A stretch of 64,000 nucleotides of DNA from Minisyncoccota bacterium (GTDB lineage Bacteria; Patescibacteriota; Minisyncoccia; UBA9983), in the NCBI GenBank assembly GCA_041648395.1, contig JBAZPC010000002.1, positions 29,181 through 93,180 on the forward strand, read 5' to 3'. Positions 14,761 to 60,863 of the stretch are shown piece after piece. A program made the position numbers and the translations under genes. Below the pieces are notes generated by a model. It was not told the DNA's origin and did not search any database. It saw only the letters and a list, made by a program, of their open reading frames with translations. The stretch's first letter is position 1. Each line of letters starts with the position of its first letter.

Positions 14761-16248
14761 TTATTTTACAAACCATTTTTTGCGGATTACCTCTATCTCT
14801 TTTCTCTCCACTTCCTCCTTTGTTCCCTTCGCTTTTTTGCCCAGCTCCTCAAGCTCTTTTTCAGACAACGCGTTCAGCTCTTTTGCCTTGTTTTCCAGCC
14901 ATTCTTCCATGTTTTTTGACGGCTCATCAAGCACTTCTTCTAAAAGAGCGTGTAAAATAAAGCCGATTTTTGGCCCCGGTTTCACGTCCAACAATTCCAT
15001 AAGCCGATTTCCGTCAATTTTTAGCATCCCCACGGAAAGCGGCGCTCTCATTGCCTCATCTATCATTGATTCATATTTGCGCAGGCGATAAGGCGACTCC
15101 TTAGGCACGCCCATGCCAATCCGGTCGCTAAAACGAACCTTCATTAAATCCCAAATATTTTCCGGTCCGACATTGCGAACAGTCCTGCGCACAGCAGATA
15201 AAGTAATCTTGTCCGTATCGGAAAAAAACAAATGATAACGGACAAGCTTTGCGATAAGTTCTATGTCCTTTTTGGAAAATTTAAGACGAGATAAAATCTT
15301 AACGGACATTTTTCCGCCAATGACGTCATGTCCGTAAAAAGTCCAGTCCTTGTTTGCTTCGTTCCATTGTCTAGTCGCCGGTTTGGCGACATCATGCAAA
15401 AGAGCCGATAAACGCACAAAAAATGGCCATTTTTTGGACACGGCGTGATCTAAAGCCCTTAAATTATGCTCCCAAACCGTGAATTTATGGTCTTTATTTT
15501 GCTCTATCCCGATTCCCTCTTCCAGCTCCGGAATGACATATTTCAAAACCCCGAGTTCGTTCATTGCGCGTATCCCTTGATTCGCGTTGTCTGACATAAT
15601 GATTTTTTCAAACTCATCTTTGATACGCTCTTTGGCAATCATTTCAAGTAAATGCGCTTTTTTCTTTATGGCTTCCTGTGTTTCATGTGAAATTTTCCAG
15701 CCCAATTCCGCGCTAAATCTTATAGCGCGCAATATCCTCAAGGCGTCTTCTTCAAACCTTTCTTCGGGATTACCAACGGCTTTGATAATTTTATTCTTCA
15801 AATCATCTTGGCCGCCAAACAAATCTATAATTTTATTACTGATTACTGACGACTGATTACTGACTACTGCCATCGCCATGGCATTTATTGTAAAATCCCT
15901 CCTTTTCAGGTCGTCCTCAAGGTTACTTGTGAAACGGACTTCATCTGGATGGCGCTTGTCAGAATATTTGGACTCCAAGCGAAATGGCGTTATTTCTATA
16001 ATTTTCAATGTTTCATCAGAAACATCTTCATTTATTACTCCAACGGTGCCGAATTTATTCTCGTAAATTGTTTTATGAAATAACTCCTGAATTTGCTCTG
16101 GTGTGGCATTTGTCGTTATATCCCAGTCCTTTGGTTTCGCGTGTAACAATAAATCACGCACGCATCCGCCAACCAAAAACGCCTCAAAACCAGCACTTTG
16201 AAGAACTTTAATAGCTTGAGAGATTATTGGAGGAATTTTGCTTCCCAT
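14761..16248 (-). CDS. cca: CCA-adding enzyme / poly(A) polymerase-family tRNA nucleotidyltransferase with HD domain
   Basis: GGCVRDLLL...RDFTINAMA head domain and HD motif (LLHDVAKP). It contains an in-frame heptamer repeat at 15836-15869. Confidence 0.8.
   Translation of the reverse strand: MGSKIPPIISQAIKVLQSAGFEAFLVGGCVRDLLLHAKPKDWDITTNATPEQIQELFHKTIYENKFGTVGVINEDVSDETLKIIEITPFRLESKYSDKRHPDEVRFTSNLEDDLKRRDFTINAMAMAVVSNQSSVISNKIIDLFGGQDDLKNKIIKAVGNPEERFEEDALRILRAIRFSAELGWKISHETQEAIKKKAHLLEMIAKERIKDEFEKIIMSDNANQGIRAMNELGVLKYVIPELEEGIGIEQNKDHKFTVWEHNLRALDHAVSKKWPFFVRLSALLHDVAKPATRQWNEANKDWTFYGHDVIGGKMSVKILSRLKFSKKDIELIAKLVRYHLFFSDTDKITLSAVRRTVRNVGPENIWDLMKVRFSDRIGMGVPKESPYRLRKYESMIDEAMRAPLSVGMLKIDGNRLMELLDVKPGPKIGFILHALLEEVLDEPSKNMEEWLENKAKELNALSEKELEELGKKAKGTKEEVERKEIEVIRKKWFVK
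15836..15869. repeat. Heptamer tandem repeat (AGTAGTCAGTA family, opposite orientation), in frame within cca
   Basis: It encodes AVVSNQSSVISN, inserted between RDFTINAMA and the iiDpfgG motif. Confidence 0.8.
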
Positions 16249-25073: not shown

Positions 25074-25155
25074 GAGTATTTAGTAGCCAGTATTTTAGTA
25101 GCCAGTATTTTTTAAAAAATTATTCTGACTACTCTTTACTGATTACTGATTACTA
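25074..25155. repeat. Heptamer/15-mer repeat block (agtagccagtatttt x2 plus an inverted ctgactact...tactgattactgattact), intergenic hup-rny
   Basis: It has direct and inverted copies of the same family. Confidence 0.75.
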
Positions 25156-40884: not shown

Positions 40885-40899
40885 ATAATTAAGTATAAA

Positions 40900-40926
40900 G
40901 CAGTCAGTATTCAGTAGCCAGTATGT
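40900..40926. repeat. Heptamer repeat (agtcagt attcagt agccagt), intergenic yebC / RM gene
   Basis: Same family, different context. Confidence 0.7.
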
Positions 40927-40985
40927 TAGCCACCGAGTGGCGCACAGATTGAAAAAACACTAAAAATGAAGGATAATTAAGCGCA

Positions 40986-43664
40986 ATGGATAAAAATTCA
41001 GCCAAACAAAAAATTCAGGAACTTGTTGAAAAATACGAGGAAGTTTTGAAATCAGGCAAGATAAAGGGATATACCGAGCAGGAAACAAAAAATGGTTTTA
41101 TTGAGCCGCTTTTTAAAATTTTGGGCTGGGACATGACGGATAAAAACGAAATTTCCCTAGAAGAGCAGATTTCCGGCGACCGCGCCGATTATGGCTTTTA
41201 TTTAAACGGCCGGGCCAAATTTTATCTTGAAGCAAAAAAGTTGTCGGCTGACCTGTGGAATGAAAAATTTGCCGAACAATGCATAAAATATTCTTGGAAC
41301 AAAGGCGTCACATGGGCGGTTTTAACTGACTTTGAAAATGTAAAAGTTTTTTGCGCCCAAGTGATAGACAAAAACTTAAACGACAAACTTCTTTTTGATA
41401 TTTCTTACAAAGAATTTATTGAGAGATTTGACCAGCTTTATTTATTATCCAAAGAGGCCTTTGAAAAGGACTTATTGGATGAGTATGCCACCAAAATCGG
41501 CAAAAAACTGCAAAAAGTTTCCGTCGGGGCAAAGCTGTATGAAGATTTGGACGAGTGCAGAAAACTTTTAACAAAAGACCTTCATACTTGGAATAAAGAC
41601 GTGCCGGATGACTTGTTAGATGAAGGCGTACAAAAGATTTTAGACAGATTGGTTTTTATCAGAGTGGCGGAAGACAGGGGAATTGAGTTATCAACTCTCA
41701 AACCGATGATTAACCAATGGAAAACCAGCGGCAAGAATGAAACTCTTTACGAATCAATGGTTGGAAAATTTAGAGAGATGGACGAGACATATAATTCCAA
41801 CTTATTTAGCCCGCATCCGTTTGAAAAATGGGAAGACCACAGCGACGCCACAAAAAAGGTCGTAAAAATTCTCTACGGCGAGGAGGGTTATTACGAATAC
41901 GACTTTAAAGTTATGCCGGCGGATATTTTGGGAGGCGTCTACGAAAGTTATCTCGGGCATCGTCTGCAAAAAGCCAAAAAGGGGCTAACCATAAACAAGG
42001 ACGCCAAGAAGAGAAAAGAGCAGGGGATTTATTACACGCCGGAATTTATTGTTGACTACATAGTTAAAAACGCGCTGAAGCCGGTTTTGGACAAATGCCA
42101 AAGCGTTAACGATTTAAAAAAGATAAAGGTTTTAGATCCGGCTTGCGGTTCCGGTTCTTTTTTATTGAAAGCCGTTGATTTGATAAGCGATAAATACAAA
42201 GAGTTCGGCAATCATAGCGAATTCACAAAGTTGACGATATTGCACGAAAATATCTACGGCGTGGATTTGGACGAAAAAGCGATAGAAATCGCGCGGCTTA
42301 ATTTGCTGATAAACGCGCTGGAGAAAAGGATGAAATTGCCGATTTTAAAAAATATCAGAAACGGCAATTCGCTTATTTCCGGCACGGACGAAGAACTGCA
42401 AAAATATTTCGGCAAAAATTTCCGCGACAAAAAACCATTCAACTGGCAAGAAGAATTTCCGGAAGTATTCAAGGAGGGCGGTTTTGATGTAATAATAGGC
42501 AACCCGCCGTATGTTCAATCTAGAAACCTAAATGACGACGAGCGACATTTTTATTGGAGCAAGTATTTAACTGATACTAACCATTCTGATATTTATTCAT
42601 TTTTTATTGAAAAATCAATAGATATTTTGAAAGAGAAAGGATTTTTGAGCTTTATTACTCCAAATACATGGTTACAAACACCGAGCTTTAAATCTGCTAG
42701 AAAAAAGATTTTTGACGAGAGTAAAGTATTAAAAATCCTGACCTTTGATGAGGGGATAAAAATATTTGGTGACGCCCAAGTATCGAGTGTTGTTTTTGTT
42801 TTACAAAGAGAAGCAGACAACAAAGCAATAGGAAGCAGTCATATAGAGATAGAAAAAGGCGGGATTAACCAAAAGATTAATGAGATAAGTAAAATTAAGC
42901 AAAAAGAAATTGACTCAGAAAAAGGATTCAATATTTTTACAAGCCAAAAACCTCAAAAGATCTTAGATAAAATACTATTAAATTCTGTTGTTTTGGATGA
43001 TATTGGTGAAATTGTTGGTGGCTTAAGAACGGGAGACGATAAAAGATTTTTAAAAGATAAATTAAGCGACCCAGATGATAGAAAATTACTCAGAGGACGA
43101 AATGTAAGCCGTTATTGTTTAGAATGGAATGGAGAATATGTTTGGTATAAACCAGAGATGATGAAGGTTAAACAAGCAGCAGCACCCAAAGAAGCAAAAT
43201 TTTTTGAGGCGAAAGAAAAGCTATTGGTTAGAATGATAACTGGCGGACAACTTATTGCTACCTTTGACGACAATGGCTTTTACTTTTTACAAGATAATCT
43301 TATTTTACCAAAAGAAAAATATAATATTAAATATTTACTAGCCGTTTTAAATTCAAAATTGTCAGGGTTTATAGTTAAAAATTCCGTGTCTAATATAGCA
43401 ATAACACAATCTTTGTTAAAGAAGTTCCCAATTTTTAAAATAGATTTTTCAAATCTAAAAGAAAAAGACAAGCATGACGAGTTAGTTAAATTAGCCGATA
43501 AAATGTTAGATCTAAATAAAGAACTTCAAAAAGTGGAAGAAAATTCTGATAAATGGCATTCTATAAAATCAGAAATAGAAAAAACGGACAAAAAGATAGA
43601 TGAGGAGGTTTATAAATTGTATGGATTGACGGAAGAGGAGATAAGAGTTGTGGAGGGGAAATAA
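40986..43664 (+). CDS. Type IIG restriction-modification enzyme (fused PD-(D/E)xK endonuclease + gamma-class N6-adenine methyltransferase + target-recognition region)
   Basis: N-terminal D...EAK nuclease-like core (GDRADYGFY...FYLEAKKL), MTase motif I LDPACGSGSFLL and motif IV IIGNPPYV, then a long C-terminal region. 892 aa. Confidence 0.7.
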   Translation: MDKNSAKQKIQELVEKYEEVLKSGKIKGYTEQETKNGFIEPLFKILGWDMTDKNEISLEEQISGDRADYGFYLNGRAKFYLEAKKLSADLWNEKFAEQCIKYSWNKGVTWAVLTDFENVKVFCAQVIDKNLNDKLLFDISYKEFIERFDQLYLLSKEAFEKDLLDEYATKIGKKLQKVSVGAKLYEDLDECRKLLTKDLHTWNKDVPDDLLDEGVQKILDRLVFIRVAEDRGIELSTLKPMINQWKTSGKNETLYESMVGKFREMDETYNSNLFSPHPFEKWEDHSDATKKVVKILYGEEGYYEYDFKVMPADILGGVYESYLGHRLQKAKKGLTINKDAKKRKEQGIYYTPEFIVDYIVKNALKPVLDKCQSVNDLKKIKVLDPACGSGSFLLKAVDLISDKYKEFGNHSEFTKLTILHENIYGVDLDEKAIEIARLNLLINALEKRMKLPILKNIRNGNSLISGTDEELQKYFGKNFRDKKPFNWQEEFPEVFKEGGFDVIIGNPPYVQSRNLNDDERHFYWSKYLTDTNHSDIYSFFIEKSIDILKEKGFLSFITPNTWLQTPSFKSARKKIFDESKVLKILTFDEGIKIFGDAQVSSVVFVLQREADNKAIGSSHIEIEKGGINQKINEISKIKQKEIDSEKGFNIFTSQKPQKILDKILLNSVVLDDIGEIVGGLRTGDDKRFLKDKLSDPDDRKLLRGRNVSRYCLEWNGEYVWYKPEMMKVKQAAAPKEAKFFEAKEKLLVRMITGGQLIATFDDNGFYFLQDNLILPKEKYNIKYLLAVLNSKLSGFIVKNSVSNIAITQSLLKKFPIFKIDFSNLKEKDKHDELVKLADKMLDLNKELQKVEENSDKWHSIKSEIEKTDKKIDEEVYKLYGLTEEEIRVVEGK

Positions 43665-43671
43665 AATTTAT

Positions 43672-44184
43672 ATGAAAAACAAAACACCTCAAAAAAAACA
43701 GCCAAAACAATTAAGGACAGCTAGACTCTCTGTGAGTGTCGCAATCCAAGATGCCTTAGAAGTTGGTAAAATTTTAAAAAAATTTGTGGAGATTTTTGGT
43801 GTTTATGATGAGAAAAAGCGTACTGAAATTAAAAATCGTAAAGTTGTTAACGAAGAAATAACAATTAATTTATCTGGATATGAGCTTACTCGAATAAATG
43901 GAGCTTTGCGCGATTATTTAACACTAAGGATAGCAAATATCTTTGATTCGCGTCCTGCTTGCAAATCCCTAAAAGATTATCCCGATATAGATTTAAACAA
44001 AATTAAAAAAATACCGGAAATAAAAAAAATCTTACATGCTCGTGATAATTGGATTGGTCATATCAACAAAAGATTTATTGGACCAGTCGATAAAAAAGTA
44101 CTCTATGGCAAGAAAGTTATTGATTTGTTGCGACAAATTGAAATATTAGTGTGCACCGAAACCATTAAAGAAAAAAACAATTAA
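43672..44184 (+). CDS. Hypothetical protein with possible HEPN-like R-x5-H motif, just downstream of the RM gene
   Basis: HARDNWIGH near the C-terminus. Its start is 8 bp after the RM stop. No other recognisable domain. Confidence 0.3.
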   Translation: MKNKTPQKKQPKQLRTARLSVSVAIQDALEVGKILKKFVEIFGVYDEKKRTEIKNRKVVNEEITINLSGYELTRINGALRDYLTLRIANIFDSRPACKSLKDYPDIDLNKIKKIPEIKKILHARDNWIGHINKRFIGPVDKKVLYGKKVIDLLRQIEILVCTETIKEKNN

Positions 44185-44333: not shown

Positions 44334-44520
44334 GTTCTCCCCCCGCTCTTGCGAACGGGGGGCGAGGCCGAAGCCACTTGTGCTTTTATCTTATATCTTT
44401 AACCCCCCGAAGTCAATCCTTTGTGGGTAAACCCCGCCACTCGCGAGTGGCGGGGTAAACAAAAAACCGCCCTTCGACAAGCTCGGGGCGGTTTTTCTCA
44501 GATCAACCCCGCCGAAGCGG
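44334..44520. terminator. Cluster of four consecutive GC hairpins downstream of cspA
   Basis: The four hairpins are ccccccgctcttgcgaacgggggg, ccccgccactcgcgagtggcgggg, aaccgcccttcgacaagctcggggcggtt and ccccgccgaagcgggg. Confidence 0.6.
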
Positions 44521-49756: not shown

Positions 49757-50212
49757 ATGAAAATTTCTGTTTCAAAAAAGCAGACGAGTAAAATAGCCAA
49801 AGAATTAGCAAAAACCCTTCGACAAGCTCAGGGTAAAAAATTTTTCAACAAAGCTGTTGTTATTGGTCTGTCCGGCGAACTCGGTAGCGGGAAGACGGCT
49901 TTCTGCCAAAGTTTCGCGAAGGCGCTGGGTGTGAAAGAAAAAGTTCACAGCCCAACATTTGTAATTATGAAAAAGTATCCAGTAGTCAGTAGCCAGTATT
50001 CAGTATTATTTCACTTTGATATGTACAGAATTAAAAATCAAAAAGACATTATTACTCTCGGTTGGAAAAAAATAATTTCTGATTCCAGAAACATAATTTT
50101 AGTTGAGTGGGCGGAAAATATCAGAAAAGTTTTTCCCAAAAAACATTTTTGGATAAAAATGTCCCATCTGGGCAAAAAAAGCAGAGGTATTGACATTAAA
50201 TCCGTAAAATAG
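49757..50212 (+). CDS. tsaE: tRNA threonylcarbamoyladenosine biosynthesis protein TsaE
   Basis: P-loop GLSGELGSGKT, HSPTF and HFDMYR motifs. It carries two in-frame repeat insertions: TLRQAQG (49811-49840) and VVSSQYSV (49981-50007). Confidence 0.75.
   Translation: MKISVSKKQTSKIAKELAKTLRQAQGKKFFNKAVVIGLSGELGSGKTAFCQSFAKALGVKEKVHSPTFVIMKKYPVVSSQYSVLFHFDMYRIKNQKDIITLGWKKIISDSRNIILVEWAENIRKVFPKKHFWIKMSHLGKKSRGIDIKSVK
49811..49840. repeat. Hairpin-unit repeat aaaacccttcgacaagctcagggtaaaaaa, in frame in tsaE
   Basis: It encodes TLRQAQGKK. The same cccttcgacaagctcgggg core forms terminator hairpins at 24715-24750 and 44461-44496. Confidence 0.6.
49981..50007. repeat. Heptamer tandem repeat (agtagtcagtagccagtattcagtatt), in frame within tsaE
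   Basis: It encodes the VVSSQYSVL segment. Confidence 0.8.
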
Positions 50213-59437: not shown

Positions 59438-59881
59438 TCAGACCATTTCTTTTTTTAGTTTATTGAAACAAATTTTTAGCTTTTCTAAAATAAAATTACT
59501 GCTAATTTGAGGGGGGTTTAATTTAAAATCTAATTTTCCGATTTTGCTAATTCCTAGAATCTTTCCGTGATGGACGCCGAAACACCTATGCCATTGGTAT
59601 ATTTTATTGGCTAAATCTATGTTTATACTAGAATAAGAACTAAGAAAATTTATAAACAATCTTTTTGAAGTTAAGCCGTTTTTAAATCTTGACAAGCCAT
59701 CGATATAACAAAGTGCTAAAATAATCTTTTCTTCTTCGTATTCTCCGCCTATTTTTTCAAGCTGTTTAATTTTAGTTTCATAATTATTAAACCATTTCTT
59801 AATTATTTCTTTGTCTGTCCCGGTCAAAAAACTTTTACGCCACATTCGGAACTCCTCTATATCCTTTTTATTTACTCTCAT
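59438..59881 (-). CDS. Hypothetical protein
   Basis: 147-aa ORF with no recognised motif. Confidence 0.3.
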   Translation of the reverse strand: MRVNKKDIEEFRMWRKSFLTGTDKEIIKKWFNNYETKIKQLEKIGGEYEEEKIILALCYIDGLSRFKNGLTSKRLFINFLSSYSSINIDLANKIYQWHRCFGVHHGKILGISKIGKLDFKLNPPQISSNFILEKLKICFNKLKKEMV

Positions 59882-59898
59882 TGTATTTTACCATTAAC

Positions 59899-60786
59899 TT
59901 AATTTGAAAGTCCGGGAAAAATTATTTGTGCCCTCAAAATTCTCGCCAAAGATTCTACTTTTCCTATTTTTGCAAATGTAGGTATTCCAACATAACAATT
60001 GCCCTTCGGGAAAATAGCTGCACCCCCAGAATTTCCATATTCAATCTTCGCAGAAGTAACATAATAATCTCCTTCGTAACCAGAAATAATACCTTCAGTG
60101 GCAGTAATACCCGTTTCTGTACCTATTCCTGGGTATCCCAATATAACAACACTCTCACCTAAAGAAAGCTGAGTATTACAAACCTGATAGTCGCCTCCTA
60201 TGTTATCAAGATATTTGTCGGGGCTGTTAATTTTGAGAGTTGCCCAGTCATATCCCTGAGACGAAAAAGCAATATTTTCAATAGCTACACTAATAATTTT
60301 GTTATAATTTGGAATTACAATCCTACAAAAATCCGGCCTATAAATAAAATCTTCAAAAACAACATGTCTGTTCGTAATAATACTAACTATAGCATTGTCG
60401 CCATAACCAAAAGTTGATAATATTCCTGAACCACTTTGTATATTGCTACCAAAATTACATTCAACATAAGCTATTTTATTTTTCCACTGTCGGATTATGT
60501 CCGGCAAATCATTTTTTGGTGTCTGCGCTTCTTTAATTATCGTTTTTTGAATAATTTGTGGTTTCTGATTTTTTAGCACCTCTACTTCTTGCCTTAACTT
60601 TTCAACTTCTAAGTCTTTCAGTCGTTGTGTTTCTTGTGCTATTTTTTCTTTCTCAATTTTTTCTGCTTGATATTTTTGGTATTGTTTAATACTAAAATAT
60701 CCTCCACCGCCCAAAACTAAAACGCCCGCAATGATTGCGATTAATATTGGTATTTGAATAAAACCTTTTTGATTTTTAATTCTCAT
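59899..60786 (-). CDS. Membrane-anchored trypsin-like (S1/S1-like) serine protease
   Basis: N-terminal TM plus coiled coil, with a C-terminal ...GYPGIGTETG...GNSGGA motif (the catalytic Ser context). Confidence 0.6.
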   Translation of the reverse strand: MRIKNQKGFIQIPILIAIIAGVLVLGGGGYFSIKQYQKYQAEKIEKEKIAQETQRLKDLEVEKLRQEVEVLKNQKPQIIQKTIIKEAQTPKNDLPDIIRQWKNKIAYVECNFGSNIQSGSGILSTFGYGDNAIVSIITNRHVVFEDFIYRPDFCRIVIPNYNKIISVAIENIAFSSQGYDWATLKINSPDKYLDNIGGDYQVCNTQLSLGESVVILGYPGIGTETGITATEGIISGYEGDYYVTSAKIEYGNSGGAAIFPKGNCYVGIPTFAKIGKVESLARILRAQIIFPGLSN

Positions 60787-60790
60787 ATTG

Positions 60791-60863
60791 TCCGCCCGGC
60801 AGGATTCGAACCTGCGACCCTCTCCTTAAAAGGGAGCTGCTCTACCAACTGAGCTACGGGCGG
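60791..60863 (-). tRNA. tRNA-Lys (anticodon TTT)
   Basis: Manual fold: acceptor CCGCCCG/CGGGCGG, D stem GCUC/GAGC, anticodon loop CUUUUAA, T stem GCAGG/CCUGC with loop UUCGAAU. Confidence 0.75.

Follow-up and report, generated by a model that had tools for sequence, protein, structure and literature searches.

The AbiU2 family of HEPN proteins has been listed as occurring in restriction-modification (RM) operons, and RM-linked HEPN proteins, AbiU2 among them, have been proposed to act as effectors of abortive infection or growth arrest (Anantharaman et al. 2013, PMC3710099). In PrrC-EcoprrI, a HEPN anticodon nuclease is held latent under a type Ic RM system, an arrangement from which comes the idea of RNA cleavage as a backup to restriction (PMC3710099). 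In groundwater genomes, type IIG is the commonest RM subtype (PMC12259885), and in candidate phyla that have no CRISPR-Cas the alternative defences are mostly RM and Abi systems (PMC4742961); the Patescibacteria, in which CRISPR-Cas is largely lacking, are known for their reliance on RM and Abi genes (PMC4742961). Here we describe a pair of plus-strand genes, one for a type IIG RM enzyme of 892 aa and one for an AbiU2-like HEPN protein of 170 aa (ORF2), which lie in the yebC-cspA interval of a 64 000-nt stretch of contig JBAZPC010000002.1 (the window). The host chromosome is that of a member of the Patescibacteria (candidate phyla radiation, CPR), Ca. Moraniibacteriota. The pairing of an RM gene with a HEPN gene is of an ordinary phage-defence kind, described in 2013. 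The explanation we favour, and hold to be probable, is that the block is a two-gene defence islet of low GC content between yebC-ruvC and cspA-ruvB, whose RM enzyme and ORF2 are modules independent of each other: they have a variable defence slot and a transcript in common but no obligate coupling.

ORF2 is like members of the AbiU2 family (PF18734; Lactococcus AbiU locus) in having an Rx5H motif with an adjoining polar residue, an acidic residue in helix 2, a small, stand-alone, all-alpha architecture and a linkage to RM genes. It differs from them in having no Sel1-repeat or AbiU1-like partner, the most frequent partner of the ORF2 family being a trypsin-like protease. With PrrC it shares the placement of a HEPN gene beside RM genes; however, PrrC carries an N-terminal ABC ATPase and is encoded inside a three-subunit type I operon, whereas ORF2 is a bare HEPN domain with no ABC ATPase fusion, stands beside a type IIG gene, and shows no conserved co-occurrence with the same RM system. 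The best structural matches of ORF2 are small dimeric HEPN toxins from HEPN-MNT toxin-antitoxin pairs (such as PDB 7ae2 and 5yep), at a sequence identity of 7-17%, but no gene for an MNT nucleotidyltransferase was found next to ORF2 among the ORFs and Pfam matches of the window or of any related locus.

Conservation of the pair was assessed from both sides. From the RM side, a profile of the ORF2 family was searched against six-frame translations of 37 loci with RM-gene orthologues of 34-65% identity, each locus with as much as 6 kb of flank per side, contig permitting. None of the 37 loci holds an ORF2 homologue, and the profile matched only in the window and in the ORF2-derived loci. In more than half of the RM orthologues a co-directional ORF begins ∼60 nt or less after the stop codon, and it is a different gene each time. 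Among these genes (L013-L048) are those for GIY-YIG/DUF4357, DUF2130 and DUF3800 (twice) proteins, an AAA_15 ATPase, a HipA-type kinase (HipA_C), an NYN RNase, an M78 peptidase, a Bro-N protein, a MerR regulator and a second N6_N4 methyltransferase, as well as several unknowns. Genes of this RM family are followed by a cargo slot whose content varies. A preliminary description of the locus had proposed a candidate two-layer defence island, and had named absence of the small gene next to orthologous RM genes as one observation that would speak against it. That absence is what the 37 loci display, their downstream slots being filled by unrelated genes, and a dedicated, coupled two-layer system is not supported in that form.

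From the ORF2 side the association with RM genes is present but loose. Informative contexts were available for 11 members of the ORF2 family, and five of these are RM-adjacent. In three of them (the window, L007 and L050) the ORF2 homologue lies directly behind a type IIG gene, with a gap of 7 nt, a gap of 17 nt and a 4-nt overlap, respectively. The L007 and L050 enzymes belong to a separate family (1016-1037 aa, with Type_ISP_C, mutually 51% identical), and in the methyltransferase core are only 23% identical to that of the window. In the other two RM-adjacent contexts, those of MvaI/BcnI- and Bsp6I-type systems, ORF2 and a LexA/S24-fused methyltransferase are transcribed divergently. Members of the family most commonly (4/11) stand after an orthologous trypsin-like protease (Trypsin_2), in a conserved cassette. 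The cassette proteases are 34-79% identical, retain the catalytic H/D/S residues and carry a lipoprotein signal (LTGAGC) or a transmembrane segment, features which suggest that they are probably extracytoplasmic. Activation of the HEPN protein through cleavage by the protease was considered and set aside, since the N-terminal lipoprotein signal or transmembrane segment probably places the protease outside the cytoplasm. One further homologue stands after a polymorphic toxin gene with RHS/YD repeats (product >1828 aa) and an immunity-like ORF of 141 aa (L059 5-6474), and another after an unknown ORF. Identities within the ORF2 family form a star-like matrix that shows no relation to the partner, and an all-against-all BLAST of the neighbours found no shared small antitoxin beside ORF2. 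The association between RM genes and ORF2 is loose and modular, with no fixed pair; conservation of the gene pair, proposed earlier as a check, is nil from the RM side and loose from the ORF2 side.

Several features of the ORF2-bearing loci are recorded in their own right. A Cas4-like PDDEXK_1 protein of 249 aa is encoded downstream of ORF2 in L001 (7063-7812) and L007 (8451-9200), the two copies being 63% identical. It is the only other recurrent neighbour of ORF2, occurs in these two loci behind different upstream partners, and has no homologue in the window. Four methyltransferases of RM systems (L001 3414-5288, L004 12050-14716, L054 980-2545 and L057 5663-8038) carry a LexA DNA-binding domain and an S24 autopeptidase fused at the N-terminus. 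They are of N4/N6, C5 and Eco57I/TaqI_C types, and lie in patescibacterial loci that also hold ORF2 homologues; it looks as though SOS-like regulators that cleave themselves had been made part of RM methylases. The window itself contains, at 59438-60786, another pair of a trypsin-like protease and a HEPN protein, the latter of a different family from ORF2.

The assignment of the large gene to type IIG in the preliminary description is borne out. The PADLOC profile REase_MTase_IIG (PDLC03604) matches the 892-aa protein over aa 1-693 at 4.3e-117, and the Pfam matches are Eco57I (7e-43), N6_Mtase (1.6e-25), TaqI_C (1.5e-19) and MmeI_Mtase (5e-14), with a weak match to HSDR_N at the N-terminus. 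The PD-(D/E)xK motif and the two methyltransferase motifs noted before were all located. The nuclease triad D68/E82/K84 (RADYGF...YLEAKK, with E82-A-K84) is unchanged in 30 of the 30 orthologues that cover the region, which were drawn from the 37 related loci. Because the triad is invariant, the nuclease half is under selection and the protein is no orphan methylase. The nuclease end also matches phrog_4225 (‘endonuclease’; aa 7-169, 3e-09) and phrog_17239 (aa 5-187, 3e-20). In the methyltransferase core, DPACGSGSF (aa 384-392) precedes NPPY (aa 506-509), which is the gamma-class order. The solved relatives nearest by sequence are CamA, PglX/BrxX, BseCI, M.TaqI and DrdV, all methyltransferases or RM fusions; CamA, PglX and M.TaqI match at E values of 1e-18 to 1e-8, and DrdV only at 2e-7.

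This architecture is that of the type IIG/IIL enzymes MmeI, BpuSI, Eco57I and DrdV, in which a PD-(D/E)xK nuclease, a gamma-class N6-adenine methyltransferase and a C-terminal target recognition domain (TRD) follow one another in that order. The window enzyme departs from these four in that its TRD is of the TaqI_C type and its nuclease of the HsdR_N type. No second methyltransferase gene adjoins the RM gene, just as MmeI-type enzymes have no separate methyltransferase gene alongside. With nuclease, methyltransferase and TRD in one chain, the protein is, as judged from its sequence, a bona fide type IIG RM fusion.

ORF2 belongs to a very small family. Only 11 close homologues (42-69% identity) were found among 5.8 billion clusters, and only 19 cluster representatives at E ≤ 1e-3 among 1.84 billion. 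All members whose source is named are from Patescibacteria, the others being from metagenome contigs. A TTG codon at 43648, which overlaps the RM stop codon, would give a longer version of 178 aa (43648-44184); however, the ATG at 43672 is the likely start, because the homologues begin at the equivalent of this ATG (MNK...). The HEPN-like character of ORF2 was originally proposed from the sequence HARDNWIGH (aa 122-130). A bare R-x5-H motif is trivial by chance, but here the surrounding residues are conserved and the motif is kept in distant relatives. R124, N126, W127, I128, H130, I131, N132 and R134 are invariant in the 11 homologues, as is a preceding block comprising D81, Y82, T84, L85 and R86, and the residue after the arginine is D or N in 10 of the 11 family members.

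The relationship to AbiU2 was seen at the level of the family. HEPN_AbiU2 (PF18734) matches seven of eight ORF2-family members, with a best E value of 2e-6. The ORF2-family profile also aligns with that of a wider family of 140-170-aa proteins (A4; hhalign probability 99.6%, E = 1.6e-24), with the R..H motifs in register, and one A4 member, P0022, reaches 27.7 bits, above the AbiU2 cut-off of 26.8. A further protein, P0012 (359 aa), consists of an ORF2-like domain fused to a canonical AbiU2 domain (42 bits), a tandem arrangement in keeping with HEPN RNases, whose active sites are dimeric. When the ORF2 family was aligned by hhalign with the canonical AbiU2 domain of P0012 alone, the match was not significant and only the R..H stretch was aligned.

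The hallmarks of HEPN proteins are an Rx4-6H motif at the end of helix 3, a polar residue after the arginine and an acidic residue in helix 2 (PMC3710099). An AlphaFold2 (AF2) model of ORF2 is all-alpha (pLDDT 81, pTM 0.75), with helices at residues 17-55, 69-90, 115-124 and 147-161 and an insert at 91-114. In this model R124 closes the third core helix, D125 follows, H130 lies just beyond and the invariant D81 is in helix 2. The predicted fold thus has the Rx5H placement, the helix-2 acid and the four-helix core with an insert between helices 2 and 3 that are expected of a HEPN domain. Together with the invariance of R124 and H130 and the family-level match to PF18734, the model upholds the original HEPN proposal, and the literature, for AbiU2 as well, agrees with the broader remark that HEPN genes are found alongside RM loci (PMC3710099). 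The profile of the ORF2 family, when searched against PDB sequences, returned nothing but spurious matches to helical proteins of low complexity (MRPL38, RNR, haemoglobin).

A number of results weigh against this picture. ORF2 itself scores only 20.0 bits (E = 5e-4) with HEPN_AbiU2, under the gathering threshold of 26.8 bits, and a Foldseek search of the PDB with the model yielded no hit with E under 0.5. Searches of PADLOC, NCBIfam and PHROGs for relatives of ORF2 yielded none, or noise only, and no characterised defence system in PADLOC or PHROGs holds the exact ORF2 family. No relative was found by tblastn against plasmids and phages or by a pattern scan of IMG/VR. The window contains no antitoxin or other visible restraint on a potentially toxic RNase. 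Finally, an empty site was sought by way of the exact CspA protein, and this search retrieved nothing beyond the same genome and one contig whose end is at cspA. Since ORF2 falls below the Pfam threshold but is linked to the family transitively through A4 and P0022, we term it ‘AbiU2-like’ and do not count it as a formal Pfam member; the profile comparisons identify it as a divergent, Patescibacteria-restricted branch of AbiU2-type HEPN proteins.

In the reading favoured here, the TaqI_C-type domain would read a DNA motif, the gamma-class methyltransferase would mark host adenines (N6-methyladenine) and the PD-(D/E)xK nuclease would cut unmarked incoming DNA. ORF2, by analogy with characterised HEPN enzymes, would most likely act as a dimeric, metal-independent RNase whose R124/H130 site may cleave cellular or phage RNA, leading to aborted infection or growth arrest. 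The RNase activity and the abortive-infection role are the most likely functions on this analogy.

A more closely coupled scheme is conceivable, in which contact with the type IIG enzyme holds ORF2 inactive until a phage anti-restriction protein frees it as a suicide RNase, making the pair a truly coupled two-layer system in the manner of PrrC. The tight juxtaposition of the genes in the window, L007 and L050 would suit such a guard, as would the finding that three independent ORF2 lineages lie right behind type IIG enzymes of two unrelated families. An RNase needs some restraint and no antitoxin is visible, and there is both the PrrC-EcoprrI precedent and the proposal made for RM-linked HEPN proteins (PMC3710099). 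We nevertheless regard the guard as unlikely, because ORF2 is kept by none of the 37 RM orthologues and six of the 11 ORF2 contexts lack a co-directional RM partner (four have the trypsin-like protease, one the RHS toxin and one the unknown ORF). In addition, the neighbour in two of the RM contexts is a divergent methyltransferase and no nuclease, and ORF2 is without the ABC ATPase regulatory domain of PrrC. A wider form of the same idea is that the mini-HEPNs are latent RNases triggered or restrained by whatever protein the upstream gene encodes, so that the type IIG version would be a minimal, ATPase-less PrrC-like guard and the protease-HEPN pair a second, undescribed version; we offer this as a speculation with a rather low chance of being right.

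The same scatter of contexts might be read in the opposite direction, ORF2 being a selfish or toxin-like cassette, or a HEPN protein of RNA processing with no part in defence, that occupies variable 3′ slots of islands, so that its position behind the RM gene would have no defensive meaning. This seems quite unlikely, given that nearly all ORF2 contexts are conflict or defence neighbourhoods, that five of 11 are RM-adjacent, that its AbiU2 relatives come from an abortive-infection locus (PMC3710099), and that the plasmids, phages and viral contigs searched hold no relative. Nor is much to be said for ORF2 as a helical protein without catalytic activity, perhaps one that regulates the upstream gene or serves it as an adaptor, with only a superficial likeness to HEPN. 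A purely structural role would not require R124, H130 and their accompanying residues, yet the two are invariant, with a polar residue after the arginine and the helix-2 acid, across 11 close and >11 distant relatives, and P0012, in which an ORF2-like domain is joined to another HEPN domain, fits a dimeric HEPN active site; this reading is very improbable.

The block is set among housekeeping genes (window 35.6-48.5 kb), with those for PBP1A (−), tyrosyl-tRNA synthetase (TyrRS; +), RuvC (−) and YebC (−) on the left and those for CspA (−), a coiled-coil protein (−), RuvB (−) and a PilB-type ATPase (−) on the right. The two genes have a GC content of 34.8%, lower than the 40.4% of the window and the 44-47% of the RuvC, YebC and RuvB genes that flank them, and fall within the lowest 6% of 3.2-kb windows. 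The block was probably acquired horizontally, with which its low GC is compatible, though no proof of it. Direct and inverted repeats around the block were limited to short A/T-rich chance matches, the palindrome GCCACTCGCGAGTGGCGG has a single occurrence, and an Rfam scan of the 40-45.5 kb region gave no credible match.

Only 7 nt separate the TAA stop codon of the RM gene, which ends at 43664, from the ATG of ORF2, and no promoter or terminator was matched within this gap. Because of the short gap and the lack of a recognisable promoter or terminator between them, the two genes are probably co-transcribed, as one transcript. Just ahead of the RM start codon, a promoter-like site is the candidate promoter of the RM-ORF2 transcript on the basis of its match to consensus, the count of such sites in the region being not above that in shuffled sequences. 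Between ORF2 and the convergent cspA gene, the segment 44320-44530 contains four successive G+C-rich hairpins with UUCG/GNRA-like loops (RNA fold z = −5.4), and it has no Rfam match above threshold. Hairpins of this run are candidate terminators for both transcription units, one of them being assigned to cspA. The coordinates of these features, and of those described above, are collected in Table 1.

Table 1. Coordinates of the two-gene block, its domains and nearby signals in the window, and of the protease-HEPN cassettes in related loci
Feature	Position	Strand	Details
Type IIG RM enzyme, single polypeptide, 892 aa	40986-43664	+	ORF, ATG start
PD-(D/E)xK nuclease domain, ∼aa 1-190	40986-41555	+	D68 (41187-41189), E82 (41229-41231), K84 (41235-41237)
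Gamma-class N6-adenine methyltransferase core, aa 340-643	42003-42914	+	Motif I DPACGSGSF 42135-42161; motif IV NPPY 42501-42512
TaqI_C-type target recognition domain, aa 700-816	43083-43433	+	PF12950, 1.5e-19
ORF2, 170 aa, divergent AbiU2-like HEPN, predicted metal-independent RNase	43672-44184	+	Internal ATG; alternative TTG 43648
R124-D-N-W-I-G-H130 (Rx5H) codons	44041-44061	+	Predicted active site; R124 44041-44043, H130 44059-44061
Promoter-like site TTGAAA-17-GATAAT	40949-40977	+	Ends 9 nt before RM start codon; consensus match 10/12 positions
G+C-rich hairpin run, ORF2 to convergent cspA	44339-44488		Hairpins 44339-44362, 44424-44460, 44472-44488
Heptamer array (C/G)AGTAnn x4	40898-40925	+	Divergent yebC/RM intergenic region
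HTH (helix-turn-helix; 2/4 loci) + Trypsin_2 + ORF2-type HEPN cassette	L004 6650-8447; L009 1679-3095; L012 552-2157; L065 234-1995		

The preliminary description had also drawn attention to a copy of a heptamer repeat upstream of the RM gene. The repeat is real, and the start of the divergent yebC gene is 14 nt downstream of it, but it is one of seven such arrays and has no specificity for the RM gene. Arrays of (C/G)AGTAnn, of 3-5 heptamers on either strand, are found at 260-290, 2265-2297, 15837-15869, 25074-25092, 25123-25155, 40898-40925 and 49973-50005, mostly in intergenic positions adjoining A/T-rich stretches. The window holds 17 overlapping matches, where 0 are expected by shuffling. 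The arrays are possibly a promoter-associated or protein-binding repeat, and the copy at the RM gene is probably not part of the defence genes.

Towards the end of the window, the top-scoring tRNA (60790-60863, minus strand; Rfam 71 bits) was called by ARAGORN as a ‘tRNA-Stop (tta)’. This call was rejected, because canonical numbering gives the anticodon loop CUUUUAA (C32-U33-UUU-A37-A38), that of tRNA-Lys(UUU). The suppressor call is almost certainly an artefact of register, and the gene one for an ordinary tRNA-Lys(UUU). It adjoins a low-GC segment with genes for GIY-YIG and RNaseH_like (PF04308) proteins.

What is new here is modest, and leaves the knowledge of RM or HEPN biology itself unchanged. 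It consists of a divergent, CPR-restricted, AbiU2-like subfamily that is missed by current libraries of defence-finding tools, and of the observation that members of the ORF2 family change their setting, from type IIG genes to type II RM systems to trypsin-like proteases. In practical terms, a family formerly annotated as ‘hypothetical’ gains a name, and the choice of candidates for defence screens is made easier. The cargo slot downstream of this RM family may repay mining for new defence genes. For the Patescibacteria, the locus is a clean example of the stacking of a DNA-level and a predicted RNA-level defence in one short, probable transcript, in which the small HEPN gene is one interchangeable cargo of a swap-in slot behind this family of type IIG genes.

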